DNA from: a virus
Lineage: Duplodnaviria; Heunggongvirae; Uroviricota; Caudoviricetes
Length of the DNA stretch: 33,615 nt
Reading direction: 5' to 3' (one strand)
Virus record (IMG/VR): IMGVR_UViG_2563366821_000007
Positions within the stretch are counted from its first letter, which is position 1. Each line of letters opens with the position of its first letter. Below, piece by piece: positions 6,514-22,727 of the stretch. The notes beneath the pieces were generated by a model that saw only the letters and a program-made list of their open reading frames with translations, had not been told where the DNA came from and ran no database searches. The position numbers and the translations under genes were made by a program.

Positions 6514-6872
6514 TTTTTATTCTTCGGTGCTTTCGGCATTACTGCCCAGTGAGTGATATTGACGTTTTCAAGGTCCCCGACCTGAAATGTCCACAGCCAT
6601 TCTCCGGTTTCTTTTTGTCCCCAGGTGTACCAGAGAGAACGCCAGCCAATTAGCCAGCCTTCTCCGTTAGCATCAAATAACAGAACACTTTCATTTGCTG
6701 GCGGCAGTTCAGCTGACACTGGTATTATTTTGTTTTCCAGTGCCGCACATTTAGCTTCAAGCGCATCGAATTTACGTACCAGGTACTCAGCATTTGTTTC
6801 ATTCACTTTCAGATCTCGTGGTACACATTTCCCGCGAAGAACCCCTTCCATTTCGAAAACATTCATGCGCAT
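6510..6872 (-). CDS. DUF551-like phage protein (second copy)
   Basis: 120 aa; C-terminal ITHWAVMPKAP resembles the DUF551 C-terminal signature seen in 2133..2678. Confidence 0.55.
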   Translation of the reverse strand: MRMNVFEMEGVLRGKCVPRDLKVNETNAEYLVRKFDALEAKCAALENKIIPVSAELPPANESVLLFDANGEGWLIGWRSLWYTWGQKETGEWLWTFQVGDLENVNITHWAVMPKAPKNKK

Positions 6873-7399
6873 TTGCGTAACTCCGATAACTCGTTAAAAC
6901 GTTCCATAAACATCCCGTAGGCATGGCTCGGAGCCAGTGGAATAACTTTGAACATTTCTGTTGCCGGGATACCTTCCAGTACTGGCCAGAAAGAGCCATC
7001 ATCAAGCCCGAGATCGCGGCGTTCGGTTGCCAGCATGATGAGATCGGCATATTTCACAGGCGTGCGCATAACCGGGGGTAACCCGTATTTCTCACGGATT
7101 ACGGCGTCTATTTTTTCTTCCATCCGTTTATAGTCAGGAAGAAGGCGTTTCAGTGGAGCGGGAATATCCTGGCAATACGCTTCTGTTGCATCATGCATTA
7201 ACGCTTCAAAAGCAAATTCCTGCGGCACCAGCTGGCTGCAAAGCACCGCATGCTGGGCGACACTGTAGAAGTGTGAAAGATGTCCTGCAAAGCGACAGAT
7301 ATTTGAAAGGGAAACCGCGATATCGTTAATCACGATGTCGTCTTTATTTATCTTGTCATAATAAAAATGCTTCCCGGAAAAAGTTTTAATAAATGACAT
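6863..7399 (-). CDS. HD-domain phosphohydrolase (YfbR/YfdR-like 5'-deoxynucleotidase family)
   Basis: Start reset to ATG 7397-7399 (MSFIKTF...) with GGAG upstream; motifs FAGHLSHFYSVAQHA and ALMHDATEAY fit the HD metal-binding H...HD pattern. Confidence 0.65.
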   Translation of the reverse strand: MSFIKTFSGKHFYYDKINKDDIVINDIAVSLSNICRFAGHLSHFYSVAQHAVLCSQLVPQEFAFEALMHDATEAYCQDIPAPLKRLLPDYKRMEEKIDAVIREKYGLPPVMRTPVKYADLIMLATERRDLGLDDGSFWPVLEGIPATEMFKVIPLAPSHAYGMFMERFNELSELRKCA

Positions 7400-7442
7400 T
7401 TCGTTCTCCACTTTATATGCGCTGCACCGCTCTGAATTTTGG

Positions 7443-7491
7443 TTGCAGCAATCCAGCCCATTTGACATGGGATGATTGCTGCAATTTTTTT
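7443..7491 (+). terminator. Intrinsic-terminator-like hairpin (11-bp perfect stem, T7 tail on plus strand)
   Basis: TTGCAGCAATC (7443-7453) and GATTGCTGCAA (7474-7484) are perfect reverse complements, followed by TTTTTTT; lies between the rdgC-like stop and the HD gene start, oriented to stop rightward (antisense) transcription. Confidence 0.4.
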
Positions 7492-8407
7492 AAGTTGTTG
7501 GATTTTGGCTTTTATCTTCTTTGTAAGAAAGAAGGTCACACATCAAATTAACTACCTTGCTGAATTGGAAAAGGTCAGCGCCAGTCTGATGACGCCACTG
7601 GAATGCTTTATCATCTTCATCATTAAATGTCTGAGATTGAGTATTGATGCGCGAAAAATGGAAATTTTCGGTAAGAATGAAGGTCACACCGCAACCGGAT
7701 AACTCCATTTTATCAGCAGTGAAACTACTACTAAGGCTATCGGCCAGTTCGCTTTGAATTGACTCATGCTCAGCTGAGTAGCGAATAATTTCCTTTTGAT
7801 CTGCGTAGCGTGATAGCTGAATATAATTTCCGACAGTGAATCCTTCAAATGCATTGGCTGCACCATTGATGTAGTTATTCAGGCGTGTAGTCAGTCCATT
7901 CTTGATATCACTGATGTTGATTGTTTCTGTTTTCACTGAACCGACAACCTTAATCAGCATTGCGCATACCATACCGGCTATTATTTTATTGGTTGTGTTG
8001 ATTACCAATAATTTCTCATCAGTGCTGTACAATGCAAGAATCAGAGTAGACTTAACAAATGCCTGTTTGCATAGATCTACTCGTACGTTATCAATAATGG
8101 CCAGTCGTTCGGCACGCTTTAATTTATTCCCGGACATATTTTCGGTTGTTTGGATTCGAGAATTAGCTTCTTTCATGACGACATGTCGGGGAATTATTTT
8201 CTGATCATGACGGATTACCATTGCGTACCCACCAGATATCGGAGTTACCAGTTCACCAGTGACAGGATTCTCTACAAAAGAGGACCGTGAAAATTCTGTT
8301 TCCCCGATTTCAGAATAAGGGAGTTCGAGAAGATGACCTTCAATAGCCTGTATACTAGGTAATGTTGCTCGGTACACAATTGCGTTACGAAATTTTGGTA
8401 ATTTCAT
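7490..8407 (-). CDS. rdgC: RdgC-like recombination-associated protein
   Basis: Start reset to ATG 8405-8407 (MKLPKFRNAIVYRATLPS), resembling the RdgC N-terminus (MLWFKNLMVYRL...); about 305 aa as expected for the family; AT-rich. Confidence 0.6.
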   Translation of the reverse strand: MKLPKFRNAIVYRATLPSIQAIEGHLLELPYSEIGETEFSRSSFVENPVTGELVTPISGGYAMVIRHDQKIIPRHVVMKEANSRIQTTENMSGNKLKRAERLAIIDNVRVDLCKQAFVKSTLILALYSTDEKLLVINTTNKIIAGMVCAMLIKVVGSVKTETINISDIKNGLTTRLNNYINGAANAFEGFTVGNYIQLSRYADQKEIIRYSAEHESIQSELADSLSSSFTADKMELSGCGVTFILTENFHFSRINTQSQTFNDEDDKAFQWRHQTGADLFQFSKVVNLMCDLLSYKEDKSQNPTT

Positions 8408-8441
8408 TCTATTTTCCTCTGCACAATGTATTAGTTTCTCC

Positions 8442-8530
8442 ACAAAACAGAGAAGAACACCTGCGGTGGCAGCCGCCCGGATGGATTGGGTTATGAGCCC
8501 GTCGTCCGGTGATGCTCTTCTCTGTTTTGT
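8442..8530. repeat. Inverted repeat with 15-bp perfect arms and 59-bp spacer
   Basis: ACAAAACAGAGAAGA (8442-8456) and TCTTCTCTGTTTTGT (8516-8530) are exact reverse complements; the spacer has its own CCGGA/TCCGG stem; located just upstream of rdgC in a non-coding stretch. Confidence 0.5.
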
Positions 8531-9050
8531 AAAAAGAGCGGTACCAGCCGGAAGCAAGTGTACAAACTGGTACCGCCAAAGCAGTGGCTGTTGTGGTGGG
8601 GTTGTCACTCAGGCGTATGGTCAACCTGACAACCCGGTGTCCTCAACGGGGAAAGAGTAACCCCGCCATACTTACCGCCGCGCCATTTCGCGGATTACCA
8701 CAACGCTGAGAGCACTTAGCCAGTTACGGCACCACACTTTGTCGCGGTTCCATAAATGCCCTCATCGTTGCACCCTGGTCTCTTCCCAGGCGTCAAACCG
8801 AATCGCCACGCTGGTTAGGCGTCTTATCAGCATCCTCATTGACTTGCACATTCCGGCTATCTGGTTTGTTTGCCCGAGCAAGGAGTGGATTGTCCCCTTT
8901 AACGTCCCCAGACCGCTAACGACGCATGTGCCATACGCCGTGTTACAACCAAATTTTGTTAGTACCTTGTTTGTAGGTCTGGAGAGAAAGATAAAATGAA
9001 GTTGCGCATTATGCAAGTGTTTTATTGCGAGATAAGCAATTTGGTGGGTA

Positions 9051-9095: not shown

Positions 9096-9788
9096 TTAAT
9101 TGTGTCGCTTAAGGGTCTGTGACTGACTGATTAAGACCTTTCCAAAGACCATAAACCGGTGTTCGTTTTCGCTGGTAATTCCCCATTCGCGGTAAATCTG
9201 ATTATCAGAAATTACCAGCAGTTTATCAGGTATCATTTGCAGTCGTTTGACGTAAATTTTATCATCAAAACCAAATACATATATACCATCCCCATCAAAC
9301 TGATTGATACTGATATCAACGAAGATGAGATCTCCTGGCTCAATGGTTGGACACATACTGTCCCCACGAACGTTGATAACTTTAATGTGATTTGCTGGTC
9401 GTCCACCAAACATCGATACAGCATTATCAGTTCTGTATTCAATGGCATGAATCACATCAATGACATCACCGCCCTGGATAAGGCCATTTCCCGCACTGGC
9501 ACTGACATCCAGCATTTCAATACGGAATACATCCTTCACCTGCGTAACATCCTCACTAATACTGTTTTTACATACAGTATTACTTTTGAGGTCTGAGGTA
9601 AAGAGATCAGCAATATCAACACCTAAGCTCCTGGCAATATTACTCAGGGCTTGTTCAGTGAATTGTTTCTGCTTACCTGTTTCGAGGCGCGAGATATTCG
9701 CCGCATCCACTCCTATTGCTTCAGCGAGATCGGCGATTTTCATGTTCTTCGCCTGGCGAAGTTGTCTGACTCGATTTCCTATGTTCAT
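9096..9788 (-). CDS. cI: CI-type prophage repressor (HTH_XRE N-terminus, S24 LexA-like peptidase C-terminus)
   Basis: 230 aa; N-terminal helix-turn-helix (IADLAEAIGVDAANISRLETGK); C-terminal S24 signature with catalytic Ser in GDSMCPT and Lys in YVKRL; divergent from a cro-like gene. Confidence 0.85.
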   Translation of the reverse strand: MNIGNRVRQLRQAKNMKIADLAEAIGVDAANISRLETGKQKQFTEQALSNIARSLGVDIADLFTSDLKSNTVCKNSISEDVTQVKDVFRIEMLDVSASAGNGLIQGGDVIDVIHAIEYRTDNAVSMFGGRPANHIKVINVRGDSMCPTIEPGDLIFVDISINQFDGDGIYVFGFDDKIYVKRLQMIPDKLLVISDNQIYREWGITSENEHRFMVFGKVLISQSQTLKRHN

Positions 9789-17606: not shown

Positions 17607-17978
17607 ATGCGTGATATTCAAATGGTTCTTGAACGTTGGGGGGCATGGGTGGCAAATAATCACGAGGATGTGGAATGGTCATCTGTTGCTGCAGGTTTTA
17701 AGGGATTAATTCCTTCGAAAGTAAAATCCCGCCCGCAATGTAGCGATGACGATGGCCTGATCATTAGCTCTGCGATGACAGTTCTTAAGAAAAAGGAACC
17801 GTATCAATACGAATTACTGGAAATGTATTATGTGTATGGGGTTACATTACGGGTGTTGGGGGTAAAACTGGGGATATCACTTAATCAGGTTGTTATCAGA
17901 CTGCAGAAAGCTGAAGGGTTTATTGACGGTTGTCTGGCAATGTTGGGGGTATCTTTAGAAATTGATTGTTACATATAG
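17607..17978 (+). CDS. Q: Late-gene antiterminator Q
   Basis: Start at ATG 17607 after GGAGA; MRDIQMVLERWGAWVANNHEDVEWSSVAAGFKGLIPSKVKSRPQC matches the Q antitermination family; last regulatory gene before the lysis region. Confidence 0.7.
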   Translation: MRDIQMVLERWGAWVANNHEDVEWSSVAAGFKGLIPSKVKSRPQCSDDDGLIISSAMTVLKKKEPYQYELLEMYYVYGVTLRVLGVKLGISLNQVVIRLQKAEGFIDGCLAMLGVSLEIDCYI

Positions 17979-18053
17979 TAATAAATTCAATCAAAGTAAA
18001 TAATCATATTTTATTATAACCTCCTGATGATACCTGTTCATTGGGAGGTTATT

Positions 18054-18671
18054 ATGGATAAAAATGTAGAGCATGTATTAGTTGATGCAATTGAAAATAA
18101 GCAATCTTTAACAGTCGTTTACTTAGGAGGGAGCCAGCCCGGAACATTAAGGAATATTTCTCCGATTAGTATAAATGGGGATAAATTGCGGGCAAGATGC
18201 CATAGTTCTGGAGCAGTAAAGGTTTTCAATCTTGGGAAAATACAGTTACCCAGTGACTCCTGCGCGGTATCTATGCACTATGGAGATTTAGAAGTTAAAG
18301 CTTATGAGACGATGCAGAGCGTAAATGACAACTTTCATGCCCTTTATCCTGAAGGACGATGGGGTGTTGATTTTAATGAGCATCGCTTTGCTTTATTTGA
18401 TTTTTTTAAAAACGGGAAACGAAAAAAAACGGCATTTATGGCAATTGAGTTCAGGGAAAGAGATGAAGAGAAAATAATAACAGGTGTAACAATTGATATT
18501 GGTATATCTGGAACAGTGATTTCTGAGAAGTCCCGAATCCCAAAAAGACGACCATGGGTAGTGGTTGGTCCCGAACACGGAGAATACAGTACTTATTCAA
18601 CTTTGGACAAGGCTGCTACAGCGTTTTTTGAGAGGCTTTCGTTGATAGCATCCGGCCTGGAAGATAATTGA
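18054..18671 (+). CDS. AT-rich cargo gene of unknown function (possible WYL-like beta-barrel pattern)
   Basis: 206 aa; ATG 18054 six nt after GGAGG; clearly lower GC than flanks; first gene after Q. Segment LTVVYLGG...LRNISPISINGDKLRARCHSSGAVKVFNLGKIQ loosely follows the WYL-domain pattern; very tentative. Confidence 0.55.
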   Translation: MDKNVEHVLVDAIENKQSLTVVYLGGSQPGTLRNISPISINGDKLRARCHSSGAVKVFNLGKIQLPSDSCAVSMHYGDLEVKAYETMQSVNDNFHALYPEGRWGVDFNEHRFALFDFFKNGKRKKTAFMAIEFRERDEEKIITGVTIDIGISGTVISEKSRIPKRRPWVVVGPEHGEYSTYSTLDKAATAFFERLSLIASGLEDN

Positions 18672-18800
18672 TTTTATGTTTGGTATTCAGAGTTCGCCGT
18701 GCTTAAGAAAGTCAAGATTCTAAAAATACTGAATGAGCTACTTGTGTTATAACAAAAATGCTATTAGTGTGTTAAGAGTGGTTACTTCGCCACACAACTT

Positions 18801-18825
18801 AAACCCGCCACTGAGCGGGTTTTTT
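18801..18825 (+). terminator. Rho-independent terminator
   Basis: AAACCCGC-CACT-GAGCGGGTTT hairpin followed by TTTTTG, about 130 bp after the cargo gene stop. Confidence 0.6.
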
Positions 18826-18949
18826 GTACCTGTAAACTTGGTGCAGTACAGTAAACACGCTGGTGGTCGTGAATACTGGCTTTTTATCTTGCTGGCTTTT
18901 TAGACAAGAGTTATTGGTATGTCACGTTAACCGGAAAGGGTAAAAAGAC

Positions 18950-19147
18950 ATGCTGAAACAGCAGGATATGACAGAAACCGCCAGAGTTGTGTTTGATGAA
19001 TTAAGCGTTACCGAACCGGCGACAGTCGGGGAGATTGCGCAGAATACTTACCTTTCACGCGAACGCTGCCAGTTAATACTGACCCAGCTTGTTATGGCGG
19101 GTCTGGCAGACTATCAGTGCGGTTGTTACAGACGCCTTCAGTCCTGA
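18950..19147 (+). CDS. Hypothetical small protein (65 aa)
   Basis: ORF-track entry; ends within a terminator hairpin; ATVGEIAQNTYLSRERCQLILTQL could be a small winged-helix; unverified. Confidence 0.4.
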   Translation: MLKQQDMTETARVVFDELSVTEPATVGEIAQNTYLSRERCQLILTQLVMAGLADYQCGCYRRLQS

Positions 19148-19281: not shown

Positions 19282-19995
19282 ATGGCTGTTGTCTGTTCAG
19301 TTATCATGGTTTGCTCCCCAATTAATATTTTTCTTGAAAAGGATACGTTGTCACTTAAGCCAGGCTCAGTTGTTCTGGCCACCAAATGCATCAGGGAGCT
19401 TTTCCTTATGCATTATGGCAAAGTTAAAATTGTCGATATAAGCGAATCCGTCGTAAGTCAATATCTGGAAAGTCAGCATAAGCTGACGAGGACTCGTCTG
19501 ACTGACATTCCGCTTTACCTGTTGCTGGAACCCAACAATCCTGCGTTGGCTGCGGCTTTAATTACCAGCCAGGGATTTTCCGGAGAGGCCACGGATATGT
19601 TTCTTATGATGGCCTGCCTGTCTCTGTTTGAAACAGATGAACGGATGTCATTGTTTTTAAGTGGATGTTTATCCAGCATAAGTGCCAAAGTCAGGGCGAT
19701 AATTCAGACAGATATATCAGCAAGCTGGACGCTTGGTGCGATTGCTCTACAGTTGCATATGAGTGAGAGTTTGTTAAAGACAAAACTGAAAAATGAAGGG
19801 GGCATGTTCAGTCGCTTGTTGCTGGAAGAGCGGATGCGTGTTGCTGTAAATATGTTATGTTCCCGGCATGGATATGGACAGGCTATAGCAGAAAAATGCG
19901 GTTATTCAAGCAGGTCCTACTTTATTTCTGTATTTCACCGCTATTATGGCTTCCCGCCAGACAGATATGTATCCAGGCAAGGGCTTGATTATTGA
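19282..19995 (+). CDS. AraC-family transcriptional regulator
   Basis: 237 aa; C-terminal dual HTH_AraC signature (WTLGAIALQLHMSESLLKTKLK... and GYGQAIAEKCGYSSRSYFISVFHRYYGFPP); AT-rich relative to phage backbone. Confidence 0.75.
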   Translation: MAVVCSVIMVCSPINIFLEKDTLSLKPGSVVLATKCIRELFLMHYGKVKIVDISESVVSQYLESQHKLTRTRLTDIPLYLLLEPNNPALAAALITSQGFSGEATDMFLMMACLSLFETDERMSLFLSGCLSSISAKVRAIIQTDISASWTLGAIALQLHMSESLLKTKLKNEGGMFSRLLLEERMRVAVNMLCSRHGYGQAIAEKCGYSSRSYFISVFHRYYGFPPDRYVSRQGLDY

Positions 19996-20023: not shown

Positions 20024-20099
20024 GGCCCTTTAGCTCAGTGGTGAGAGCGAGCGATTCATAATCGCCAGGTCGCTGGTTCAAATCCAGCAAGGGCCACCA
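20024..20099 (+). tRNA. tRNA with CAT anticodon (Met or lysidine-modified Ile2-type)
   Basis: Cloverleaf read by eye: 7-bp acceptor stem GGCCCTT/AAGGGCC, anticodon stem GCGAT/ATCGC with loop TCATAAT (anticodon CAT), T-loop GGTTCAAATCC, 3' CCA encoded. Confidence 0.8.
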
Positions 20100-20106
20100 T
20101 CACATA

Positions 20107-20183
20107 CCGCCATTAGCTCATCAGGATAGAGCGCCAGCCTTCGAAGCTGGTTGCGCGGGGTTCGAGTCCTCGATGGCGGTCCA
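20107..20183 (+). tRNA. tRNA-Arg (anticodon TCG as read)
   Basis: Acceptor CCGCCAT/ATGGCGG, U8, D-stem GCTC/GAGC, anticodon stem CCAGC/GCTGG with loop CTTCGAA (anticodon TCG), T-loop TTCGAGT, CCA encoded; C1:G72 base pair is unusual and the anticodon should be confirmed computationally. Confidence 0.7.
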
Positions 20184-20196
20184 TTATCTGTACCCT

Positions 20197-20273
20197 GCGT
20201 TATTAGCTCAGCCGGACAGAGCAATTGCCTTCTAAGCAATCGGTCACTGGTTCGAATCCAGTACAACGCGCCA
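20197..20273 (+). tRNA. tRNA-Arg (anticodon TCT)
   Basis: Acceptor GCGTTAT/ACAACGC (one mismatch), anticodon stem ATTGC/GCAAT with loop CTTCTAA (anticodon TCT), T-arm ACTGG-TTCGAAT-CCAGT, CCA encoded. Confidence 0.8.
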
Positions 20274-20318: not shown

Positions 20319-20765
20319 CTCACAATTCAGACGGTTGACAGTTGTCTGTTTTGCGGGGAGTTTGTTAAAAGAAACTGGCATGGTGAATCCCCCTGTGCGG
20401 AGGGGCAATCAGCAACTGGTGTTTTGTCACCGACCCTTATCCTTTCTGTGCGGGTTCAGGTGCTGATACTGAACTCACCGGGAGGCACCCGGCATCATGT
20501 GCATGATGATACAGATACGCGGCTTTAGCCCCTCTCCGGAGGGGCTTTCTTGTGGGCAAAAAAAAGCCCGAGTGGGTTCGGGCAACAGCATGAGATATAC
20601 ATTTTTATAATCGAATGGATTTTAACCAGAATTCATAAGGCTGCGCAACTGCGCGGTCTTTTTCGAATTGCGGGCTGTCGTCTCTCTTCTGCCATTGTCC
20701 TGTAACTTCCGGACTTCAGCCCGCTCCTTATTTTACTCACAATATTATCCCGGCCGGGAGGATTC

Positions 20766-22727
20766 ATGGCATTTAAACACTATGACGTGGTCAGGGCGGC
20801 ATCGCCGTCAGACCTTGCGAAACGACTGACACAAAAACTGAAGGAGGGGTGGCAGCCATTTGGCAGTCCGGTGGCCATCACGCCTTATACCCTGATGCAG
20901 GCCATTGCGGCGGAAGGTGATGTCACCACACCTGTGGTGGTGAAGCCGTCGGATGGAGAAGGCGCAGTTATCAGCACTACCAGCAACCCGGAGTATTACT
21001 TTGTTGTTGCCCTGGCCGGGCAGTCAAACGGTATGGCGTATGGTGAAGGGCTTCCGCTGCCGGAGACATATGACCGTCCGGACCCGCGTATTAAACAGCT
21101 GGCGCGTCGCAGCACTGTCACGCCGGGTGGTGCGTCCTGTAACTACAATGACATTATTCCTGCGGACCACTGCCTGCATGATGTTCAGGATTTGAGTAAG
21201 TTTTCACACCCGAAAGCCAGCGCAGCTCAGTATGGATGCGTGGGGCAGGGATTACATATCGCGAAGAAATTGTTGCCGTTTATTCCGGCGAATGCCGGTA
21301 TTCTTCTGGTTCCGTGCTGCCGTGGTGGTTCTGCATTTTTGGCGGGCGATGAAGGTACCTTCAGCGAATCCACCGGCGCAAGCGAGACCTCGGCACGCTG
21401 GGGTGTAGATAAGCCACTGTACAAGGACCTGCTTACCCGTACTCAGGCCGCACTGAAGGCCAACCCTAAAAATATTCTGCTTGCAGTGGTCTGGATGCAG
21501 GGCGAGTTTGATTTGAAACAGGGTGCATACGCCACTCAGCCGGGGCTGTTTGATTCCATGGTGGAAAAATATCGTTCTGACCTGTCGGAATTCGGAGGTC
21601 AGTGTCTCGGGGGCTCTCCGTCATCAGTTCCCTGGATTTGTGGCGACACGACCTACTACTGGAAGCAGACTTATTCTTCGCAATACGATGCGGTGTATGG
21701 TGCATATAAGACGAAATCCGCAAAAAAAATTTTCTTTGTGCCGTTTATGACGGATGAAAACGGGCGAAATGTGGGTACCAACGAGCCGTCAGAAGATCCG
21801 GATGTTGCGGATATTGGGTATTACGGAGCCGGTGGTCGAACGGACGCCAAAACCTGGACGACGGCTGACCGTAAAACGCATTTTGGATCATGGGCACGTC
21901 GTGGGATTATTTCCGACCGTCTGGCAACGGCGATTCTTGTGCATGCCGGGAGAACCGCTGAATTCATTACCGGAAAACAGCCTGATACGGTGAAGCCCAC
22001 CGGACCTTCCGGTGAAGGTACGGAGAGAGAGCCGGAAGGTCCGGTCAGTAACCGAACCCTGATGAGTCTGCTGGCGTCCGGCGAAGACCTGGCATCACAG
22101 GGCTGGCGCTATTATCACAAACCGGCGAGCGGAGACAATGTTAACAAAAACATTGCTGAAGCGGTGGTCAGTGATGCGGGGGCTACGGGAGGTAAGGCCC
22201 TGCAACTGAATAAACCGGAAAACCACATCTGGTTTCTGGAGCATGATGCAGCCGGGCAGGGGGCAGAGTTGCTGAAGAAAGGAGGACGTGTGAGCGTACG
22301 GTTTAAGTTGCCGGGTTCACTGGTGCCGAATCAGTTTGCCCTGGGCATTTACTGGCAGTTGTCGTCCCTGCCGGAGGGAGTGACGCTGGCAGAGGAAGGC
22401 AACGACATGCTGATGTCCTTCTTCCTGCAGACGGATGCGACGAACCTGAACGCGATGCACCACAAGAAGCCGAATGCGAAGCTGGATACGTTCGGGGTCT
22501 TTGATAACGGATGGCACACACTGGCTTTTGAGTTTGCCGGAAACAACAGCATTCAGGTGACGCCGGTACTGGATGAGAAACGGGGGACGCCGTTCACACT
22601 GGTGAAATCTCCGGCATCAGGGGCGGCGGACAAACTGCAACTGACAGGCATATCAAAGGCGGCGACATATACGCTGCTGATTGACAGTGTGAAGGTGGAA
22701 GTGAACAACGCGGATGCCGCGGCATGA
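20766..22727 (+). CDS. Prophage sialate O-acetylesterase (NanS-p-like; N-terminal DUF1737 plus SGNH hydrolase)
   Basis: 653 aa; N-terminus MAFKHYDVVRAASPSDLAKRL typical of DUF1737; SGNH block I (VALAGQSNG) follows; GGGAGG Shine-Dalgarno; located downstream of the tRNAs as in Stx-type lambdoid phages. Confidence 0.75.
   Translation: MAFKHYDVVRAASPSDLAKRLTQKLKEGWQPFGSPVAITPYTLMQAIAAEGDVTTPVVVKPSDGEGAVISTTSNPEYYFVVALAGQSNGMAYGEGLPLPETYDRPDPRIKQLARRSTVTPGGASCNYNDIIPADHCLHDVQDLSKFSHPKASAAQYGCVGQGLHIAKKLLPFIPANAGILLVPCCRGGSAFLAGDEGTFSESTGASETSARWGVDKPLYKDLLTRTQAALKANPKNILLAVVWMQGEFDLKQGAYATQPGLFDSMVEKYRSDLSEFGGQCLGGSPSSVPWICGDTTYYWKQTYSSQYDAVYGAYKTKSAKKIFFVPFMTDENGRNVGTNEPSEDPDVADIGYYGAGGRTDAKTWTTADRKTHFGSWARRGIISDRLATAILVHAGRTAEFITGKQPDTVKPTGPSGEGTEREPEGPVSNRTLMSLLASGEDLASQGWRYYHKPASGDNVNKNIAEAVVSDAGATGGKALQLNKPENHIWFLEHDAAGQGAELLKKGGRVSVRFKLPGSLVPNQFALGIYWQLSSLPEGVTLAEEGNDMLMSFFLQTDATNLNAMHHKKPNAKLDTFGVFDNGWHTLAFEFAGNNSIQVTPVLDEKRGTPFTLVKSPASGAADKLQLTGISKAATYTLLIDSVKVEVNNADAAA

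Follow-up and report, generated by a model that had tools for sequence, protein, structure and literature searches.

An AT-rich gene directly behind the antiterminator gene Q of a lambdoid prophage raises two questions: what its product does, and from which promoter it is read. The gene occupies positions 18054-18671 of the virus record IMGVR_UViG_2563366821_000007, a lambdoid prophage of 33,615 nucleotides (the whole stretch is called the window below), in which the segment 17979-18825 is 100% identical to Escherichia coli S88 (NC_011742) and some 20 further complete genomes. We found that this open reading frame (ORF) encodes a protein with a true WYL domain and no helix-turn-helix (HTH) domain, and that it very probably lies upstream of the late promoter pR'. 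Taken as a whole, the reading that this stand-alone WYL protein is a single-gene, nucleic-acid-sensing conflict factor placed ahead of pR' has, in our view, about an even chance of being right. The elements on which the argument turns are as follows, SD being the Shine-Dalgarno sequence, MFE the minimum free energy and E the expect value of a search:

17607..17978, + strand: Q antiterminator gene, Q21 family (PF06530, E 8.8e-47; PDB 6jnx/6p18, E 5.5e-10)
17979..18053, + strand: AT-rich spacer of 75 bp, 25% GC, between Q and the ORF
18010..18058, + strand: SD-sequestering RNA hairpin (fold MFE -23 kcal/mol)
18054..18671, + strand: gene for a 205-aa HTH-less WYL protein (ORF, SD, profile and structure searches)
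18742..18770, + strand: putative late promoter pR' (phage 21 geometry and lineage comparison)
18801..18825, + strand: intrinsic terminator, putative tR' (stem dG -12 kcal/mol and T-run)

The gene itself is well supported. The frame 18054-18671 is open, it is preceded by a strong SD (GGGAGG, 18043-48), and RefSeq calls it as WP_000360285.1 in E. coli S88, with newer annotations of the Prokaryotic Genome Annotation Pipeline (PGAP) naming its product 'WYL domain-containing protein'. The initial annotation had described an AT-rich ORF of 206 aa directly after Q. The ORF and its place were confirmed and its length was corrected, since the frame codes for 205 aa before its stop. With 39.6% GC it is poorer in GC than the window (50.4%), and only 2.9% of 618-nt windows are as low; the low-GC tract begins already within Q, at about 17700. 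Likewise, the gene directly upstream is indeed Q: PGAP names its product 'antiterminator Q family protein', and the Q21 structures 6jnx/6p18 are its relatives. The ORF is under purifying selection, with a dN/dS of 0.21 at a dS of 0.84 against a 71%-identical variant.

We looked at the protein by profile searches and structure prediction. The Pfam WYL profile (PF13280) matches it with E 0.0085 and 16.5 bits, the gathering cut-off being 21.8 bits, and matches 48 of 134 family members at E<=0.01 (best 4.8e-8). NCBIfam gave a chance-level match only (E 0.16, 11.9 bits vs a cut-off of 93.8), a search of the PDB by sequence gave no match, and the protein falls in phrog_8498, whose function is unassigned. 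An AlphaFold model built from the alignment of the 134 family members was confident (predicted local distance difference test, pLDDT, 86). In this predicted structure, residues 1-66 (nt 18054-18251) form a helix and a five-stranded Sm-like barrel, that is, the Sm/SH3-like barrel of WYL domains; residues 67-86 are a poorly predicted linker, and residues 87-205 (nt 18312-18668) form a helix, a beta-sheet and a long C-terminal helix. Pfam and NCBIfam found no HTH, and a single helix precedes the barrel, which begins at about residue 17, with no extra N-terminal residues. The C-terminal alpha/beta domain (about aa 87-205) is family-specific and without recognisable relatives.

WYL domains are understood as switches that sense single-stranded DNA (ssDNA), mounted on DNA-binding heads, with BREX, CBASS, DdmDE and damage regulons under their control. 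The residues that contact ssDNA on the barrel's top face are present in the ORF protein. In the profile alignment, the family motif YhGGSqPGavReI falls on DriD YEGGSTPGRTREV (Y168-E-G-G-S172-T-P-G-R-T-R178-E-V), with Y23, S27 and R33 aligned to DriD Y168, S172 and R178 and conserved in 100%, 92% and 100% of the 134 family members, and K56 (100%) and F58 (94%) occupy the place of the R-x-W strand. The three DriD residues touch ssDNA phosphates, and the Y168A and R176A/R178A substitutions abolish activation (PMC10853764); CapW and BrxR bind ssDNA via the same WYL pocket (PMC11662680, PMC13622015). The W-Y-L tripeptide itself is missing, its place being taken by L45-R46-A47 within K-L-R-A-R-C; it is degenerate in bona fide members too (NYL in DriD, WHV in CapW). 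By fold and pocket, the ORF protein carries a true WYL domain, and the pocket appears intact. The initial annotation had noticed a loose WYL-like pattern in the N-terminal third and had proposed profile searches and structure prediction as a check; both bore the pattern out. We consider it rather probable that the protein binds single-stranded nucleic acid in this pocket.

The rest of the protein sets it apart from the regulators in which this pocket is known. Regulators with the winged HTH-WYL-WCX architecture (BrxR, CapW, DriD, PafBC) count about 290-330 aa, whereas the ORF protein counts 205 aa, has neither the N-terminal winged HTH nor the linker helices, and ends in a domain that is not recognisably WCX, the domain by which those regulators complete the ssDNA pocket. 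It is therefore outside this regulator family, and its small size and lack of an HTH preclude a role as a DNA-bound repressor or activator. The conserved residues of its C-terminal domain (W103, K119-N-G121, K125, R166-P-W168, A187 and F191) look basic or aromatic and not catalytic, to judge from the alignment.

The ORF protein belongs to a large family. A profile search of 1.84 billion cluster representatives returned 954 clusters (at 50% identity) at E<=1e-3, 608 at <=1e-10 and 191 at <=1e-30. Members come from several phyla, are nearly all 185-210 aa long and match end to end. Fusions are rare and comprise N-terminal transmembrane helices, C-terminal zinc ribbons with transmembrane helices, a SWIM finger and a 160-aa extension that has no PDB match; these partners are uninformative. 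The SWIM fusion, in a gammaproteobacterial metagenome-assembled genome (L010 611-1159), joins a SWIM zinc finger and a coiled coil to the WYL barrel of the family, without the C-terminal domain.

To place the late promoter, we took the annotated phage 21 cassette as a model and compared seven phages. In the curated phage 21 record (OL657228, positions of that locus), Q stops at 1932, the -35 hexamer of pR' (TTGACA) is at 1939-44, two 8-bp Q-binding subsites at 1947-62 lie between -35 and -10, transcription starts at 1974, and a pause element (1975-81) and a terminator (1976-2023) follow; the whole switch takes up no more than the 91 nt behind the Q stop, and its leader RNA measures about 50 nt. 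In the cargo-free relatives of the window (Stx2a phage LC567818 and PhiR5_1), 92 nt lead from the Q stop to the end of the homologous terminator. We aligned the window with four lineages differing after Q (LC567818/PhiR5_1, PhiR40_1, phiP27 and Stx2a_1447), and a block running from GTTAAGAGTGGTTAC to the terminator proved common to all five. Directly before this block, in the same register, each lineage has a TAnnnT-type hexamer (TAGTGT, CAGTAT, TATGCT, TATCCT, TATCGT), with a CAAAAA tract 7 nt upstream of it; farther upstream the sequences are unrelated.

In the window, the candidate pR' consists of a -35 TTGTGT (18742-47), a 17-nt spacer and a -10 TAGTGT (18765-70), with a predicted transcription start site (TSS) at about 18777, and begins 71 nt past the ORF stop. 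Its putative Q-binding element would lie within the promoter spacer, at 18748-64, with CAAAAA as its core. The 17-mer TTGTGTTATAACAAAAA, which covers the -35 and the first 11 spacer bases, is identical in another lineage (L054/L056), which shares this Q type and carries an ORF variant of 71-73% identity, despite a diverged 3' untranslated region with a 41-nt indel; the identity of -35 and spacer is limited to these two lineages. This fits the phage 21 paradigm, which predicts a Q-allele-specific element between -35 and -10 as the Q-binding element. A perfect 8-bp tandem repeat, AGTATGTC|AGTATGTT, was seen in the cargo-free L002/L082 lineage (L002 3422-3437, same sequence in L082), where it overlaps the putative -10 of pR' and lies about 10 bp further downstream than its phage 21 counterpart; it may be the Q-binding element of the cargo-free Q allele. 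phiP27 perhaps has such a repeat too (AATTCCAA|AAATCCGA).

The terminator at 18801-18825, named in the initial annotation as the next one on this strand, was found again, with an 8-bp stem (18801-08/18815-22) and a T-run to 18825. It is homologous to an element annotated as a terminator in phage SfV, which has a Q of a different family and shares with the window only the terminator onward, from position 18802. A consensus scan overlooked it because the stem extension consumed the T-run. The block 18740-18960 is matched in 2228 of 5426 complete E. coli genomes, with junction classes at about 18753, 18770 and 18802. With a PF06530-type Q, a predicted promoter containing a putative Q-specific element, a short leader and an intrinsic terminator, the window fits the pattern of a Q21-family cassette. 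The likeness to phage 21 extends to the Pfam family of Q, to the Q element between -35 and -10 and to the leader of about 50 nt that ends in an intrinsic terminator. The differences are that 763 bp with an interposed gene separate Q from the -35 in the window, whereas the phage 21 -35 starts 7 nt past the Q stop, and that the recognition helix of the window Q differs.

On this comparison, pR' downstream of the ORF is a prediction in which we place high confidence. The constitutive leader would then be a 49-nt RNA (18777-18825) and not an 850-nt mRNA; tR' would end this leader, as well as any ORF transcript that is not antiterminated, and Q-dependent passage of 18801-25 would rely on TATAACAAAAA. 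With pR' downstream of it, the ORF falls outside the short constitutive pR'-tR' RNA, and the comparative evidence does not class it among genes carried on such a leader. Its position alone gives no ground for expression in the lysogen. The predicted leader resembles StxS, the pR'-tR' leader RNA of Shiga toxin (Stx) phages, in being an equivalent by-product of antitermination that is expected to be constitutive; it differs in that StxS derives from a 258-nt leader of a different Q type, and no Hfq binding or target is known for the window RNA. The leader (18777-18825, + strand) folds into two hairpins with a U-run end, like an Hfq-type small RNA (sRNA). An Rfam search of the ORF, its leader and the pR'-tR' RNA returned no family.

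The initial annotation had instead expected the late promoter directly after Q, which would put it in the 75-bp spacer, and had suggested that the ORF may lie on a constitutive pR' transcript reaching 18801-25 and be expressed in the lysogen. A lambda-like pR' normally lies directly after Q, as in phage 21, the spacer is AT-rich with -10-like hexamers, and there is no terminator from the spacer to 18801, all of which speaks for such an arrangement. However, the spacer shares nothing with the post-Q region of the cargo-free relatives, and a promoter scan of it found no plus-strand site, the sole match (18027-18055) having its -10 over the ORF start codon. The conserved Q-allele-specific element lies downstream of the ORF, where the layout of the phage 21 cassette recurs, with the -10 in register and roughly 49 nt to the terminator. 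In addition, the minus-strand cargo that occupies the same slot in PhiR40_1 and Stx2a_1447 would be unreadable from a pR' placed before it. A constitutive late-promoter transcript through the ORF is thus not supported, the compact phage 21-like module (18742-18825) sitting downstream of it, and we consider this model improbable.

How, then, could the ORF be transcribed? As no terminator separates Q from the ORF, an N-type antiterminated delayed-early transcript should enter it. The spacer also contains weak promoter-like hexamers (CATATT at 18006-11 and TATTAT at 18012-17) and no convincing -35. The stretch ATATTTTA is kept in the 73% variant, where CATATT is TATATT, with no conserved -35; a promoter of the ORF's own in the spacer is possible. 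At the level of the RNA, a hairpin covers the start of the gene. Its core stem pairs 18016-30 with 18038-52, and its outer stem pairs 18010-14 with 18054-58 and includes AUGGA, so that both the SD and the start codon are buried. The fold has a z-score of -5.4, with none of 200 shuffled sequences as stable, and the 73% variant preserves it, having one mismatch and three substitutions that are compatible with pairing. Proteins that do harm when overproduced typically have low, gated translation, and the buried ribosome-binding site (RBS) is a hint that the ORF protein is one of them. An IS10-style fold-back, in which only read-through transcripts carry the anti-SD arm and those from a promoter of the ORF's own begin within that arm, was considered and rejected because the sole conserved -10-like hexamer (yATATT, 18006-11) predicts a TSS at about 18018, upstream of the anti-SD arm.

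The gene's distribution was compared over the 5426 genomes. The segment 17780-18100 is present in 52 of them, always full-length and at least 99% identical, and wherever the low-GC 3' half of this Q allele occurs, the ORF is there as well. A variant module is present in 22 further genomes. Between window and variant, Q is 83% and the ORF 76% identical at the nucleotide level and the promoter element is identical, which indicates that the three diverged together as one module. While the downstream block is in 2228 genomes, the ORF is in about 74 (about 1.4% of E. coli genomes). Some E. coli genomes hold frameshifted or truncated copies (P0003, P0006), which indicates that the gene decays in some lineages.

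Among related phages, the place between Q and pR' holds different genes. It is empty in LC567818 and PhiR5_1, contains a minus-strand gene of 148 aa in PhiR40_1 (L003 3466-3912) and two minus-strand genes of 179 aa (membrane-like) and 343 aa in Stx2a_1447 (L083 862-2425), and in phiP27 (L065 234-1463) it carries gene L22, a homologue of PD-Lambda-1 (PADLOC E 2e-89; T5orf172 domain). The gap between Q21-type Q genes and the late promoter, the latter as predicted here, is a variable cargo slot. PD-Lambda-1 is a defence gene that was found experimentally. Like L22, the window ORF is a single gene in the same slot and orientation, variable among similar lambdoid prophages; the proteins are unrelated, L22 being of the T5orf172/GIY-YIG type with 409 aa, PD-Lambda-1 has an experimentally shown defence phenotype, and L22 is preceded by a good sigma-70 promoter candidate, whereas the window ORF has none. 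Our literature searches returned no paper on a Q-proximal hotspot.

Distant homologues (25-36% identity, same length) were then located in their own surroundings, the homologous loci being gathered with a five-sequence alignment. In a Leucothrix contig (L004), the homologue lies directly after PD-T4-2/NsnA-like and HEPN genes, with an AAA_15 ATPase, FRG and NERD nearby; in L071 it follows an AAA_13 ATPase and an Mrr-nSTAND3 NTPase, and in L074 it stands between an HD-domain protein and an OLD-like TOPRIM ATPase. In three related prophages (L061, L069 and L076) it sits between a CI-like repressor and the early-left operon, which is the position of lambda rexAB, and it is inverted in one of them, which implies a promoter of its own there. 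The adjoining CI-like repressors are short (138-152 aa), and Pfam finds only the CI HTH domain in them. The likeness to rexAB is one of place and concerns these distant homologues; there is no relation in sequence or fold, and the window gene lies after Q, outside the immunity region. Other homologues are on an ICE (integrative and conjugative element), on integrase-bearing islets or beside terminase genes. PADLOC, run on 56 neighbours, reported dGTPase (2e-118), PDC-S06 (2e-268), PDC-S73, Old, GajA, AriA and TIR-type matches, the dGTPase and Old/GajA matches most probably belonging to the HD and TOPRIM genes of L074. No conserved partner gene came out of an all-against-all BLASTP among the 56 neighbours, which stem from different loci, and the lack of a recurring neighbour family indicates that the gene acts alone. 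These contexts are the usual signature of a mobile conflict gene, on either side of the conflict.

A mechanism can be proposed from these elements. The switch would be ordered as Q, the ORF, the cognate pR' with the binding site of Q (18742-70) and tR' (18801-25). The ORF would be read either as an extension of the delayed-early Q transcript or from a weak promoter belonging to it; the conserved hairpin would throttle its translation, and its mRNA would end at tR'. The WYL pocket would bind ssDNA or single-stranded RNA, and the C-terminal domain would relay the effect, probably via oligomerisation or partner binding, as no catalytic motif is conserved. The protein's role would be to exclude other phages or to defend against them. 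Of the single readings considered this is the best, favoured because of the defence-island, rex-position and PD-Lambda-1-slot contexts, and we hold it tentatively, at somewhat less than an even chance.

Several points weigh against this proposal. The position after Q, co-oriented and without a convincing promoter, argues for expression in lytic growth rather than in the lysogen, and lytic expression suits counter-defence or a role linked to replication no less well than defence. Clear defence islands make up only 3 of about 16 independent non-E. coli contexts, and in L007 the homologue lies among ordinary metabolic genes. PADLOC-DB v2.0 has no system-specific model that matches the protein, which hits only generic Cas-associated WYL models (E 1.4e-3 and 6.6e-3); the typical family member has no catalytic or membrane effector domain, and literature searches returned no paper on the family, its accession, or HTH-less or phage WYL proteins. 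As for pR', its placement, although highly probable, is drawn from comparison, the window -35 is weak, and the window has no convincing 8-bp tandem direct repeat like the Q-binding element of phage 21. It likewise shows no good sigma-dependent pause element. TAAGAG (18773-78) was considered as one; it is like the TAAGCT of phage 21 without the final T, its register to the TSS is unclear, and it was rejected.

The main rival to defence or exclusion is favoured by the headless architecture and the probable co-transcription with Q. The protein, made with Q in lytic growth, could be a decoy that absorbs the ssDNA alarm or binds the sensors, so that BREX (BrxR), CBASS (CapW) and DdmDE stay repressed. 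It would keep the ssDNA-contact residues and lack the HTH output domain, as observed, and the gene is co-oriented with Q, stably linked to it and at the end of the delayed-early operon; moreover, ssDNA induces CapW and BrxR, and derepression matters against phage (PMC11662680, PMC13622015). However, homologues in chromosomal defence islands and beside prophage repressors, once independently oriented, are typical of defence genes expressed in the lysogen, a stoichiometric sponge needs high expression, yet the RBS is buried in a hairpin of -23 kcal/mol, and a few homologues are fused to transmembrane segments. We regard counter-defence of this kind as unlikely, and its specific form, in which the headless WYL protein competes with BrxR, CapW or the DdmDE regulator for their ligand and keeps inducible defences off during lytic growth, as a little less likely still. 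If true, it would be a counter-defence aimed at the regulators of immunity and not at its effectors.

Some of the same observations would suit a regulator internal to the phage, which senses ssDNA from replication or damage and tunes induction or the timing of the late switch via the repressor, Q or RNA polymerase. The gene is embedded between Q and the binding site of Q and co-diverges with Q, homologues in other phages abut short CI-like repressors, and DriD and PafBC are ssDNA-activated damage regulators. Most Q21-family cassettes nevertheless do without the gene, as the genome counts given above show; homologues live in non-phage islands with no Q or CI nearby, and the position within phages varies, for instance beside terminase, which makes such a role doubtful, clearly more so than a decoy. 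Finally, the patchy distribution and the frameshifted copies would be expected of a selfish or neutral passenger of no benefit to phage or host. Against this stand the low dN/dS over a dS of 0.84, the conservation of full-length architecture and pocket residues over about 950 clusters and several phyla, and the conserved translational hairpin, and we consider a passenger very improbable. Defence or exclusion by a stand-alone WYL sensor is the reading that we retain.

The remaining genes around the switch belong to the phage backbone or to the late operon:

Upstream, + strand: KilA-N protein gene, first in the local order, ahead of DUF968/HNH
Upstream, + strand: DUF968/HNH protein gene, between the KilA-N gene and Q
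18950..19147, + strand: 65-aa winged-helix (TrmB-like) backbone gene (phrog_331, E 6e-37; weak TrmB match)
19282..19995, + strand: AraC-family YdeO/GadX-like regulator, behind tR' within the late operon (NCBIfam E 4e-31, under its equivalog cut-off)
20024-20273, + strand: tRNA-Met(CAT), tRNA-Arg(TCG) and tRNA-Arg(TCT)
20766-22727, + strand: NanS-p-type esterase (DUF1737-SASA-DUF6645), with the lysis genes next

The winged-helix gene is the first after tR'. It also follows the terminator in phages without the ORF and is conserved backbone, outside the cargo. The AraC-family regulator, which we take to resemble the prophage-encoded acid-resistance regulators Psr/PatE of enterohaemorrhagic E. coli, has a counterpart in phiSTEC1575-Stx2k, where the same gene lies ahead of stx2k. 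The tRNA trio and the esterase are placed exactly as in the Stx-phage order, in which the same trio is followed by stx and then nanS-p, and the window's late region is related to those of Stx phages and lacks stx. The interval from the tRNA genes to the esterase gene contains the sRNA STnc100 (20349-20557, + strand; Rfam 131.7 bits, E 6.6e-30) and an AsxR/AgvB-type prophage anti-sRNA (20559-20613, - strand; Rfam AsxR 63.0 bits, exactly the gathering score). A second low-GC tract (about 39-41% GC) occupies 6863-8608 on the minus strand, left of the CI-like repressor (9096-9788). Its ORF at 7490-8608 was considered as a rex-like moron and rejected, the 372-aa product being a common exonuclease-like phage protein, and PADLOC gave no match for either ORF of this tract.

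Altogether, the window shows a stand-alone WYL architecture, itself widespread, at an unusual site within the Q switch. In lambdoid and Stx-type prophages, the stretch from Q to the late promoter may generally be a hotspot for cargo or defence genes, with phiP27, Stx2a_1447 and PhiR40_1 as examples. For annotation, the lesson is that, in phages of the Q21 type, a gene directly behind Q cannot be assumed to lie on the late transcript or on the constitutive leader, and with the promoter map corrected, a different expression of the ORF is to be expected. The family, with about 950 clusters at 50% identity, keeps the sensing pocket, swaps every output domain for an unknown fold and travels as a single gene via prophages, ICEs and defence islands. 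Solving its function would extend what a WYL sensor can be wired to.

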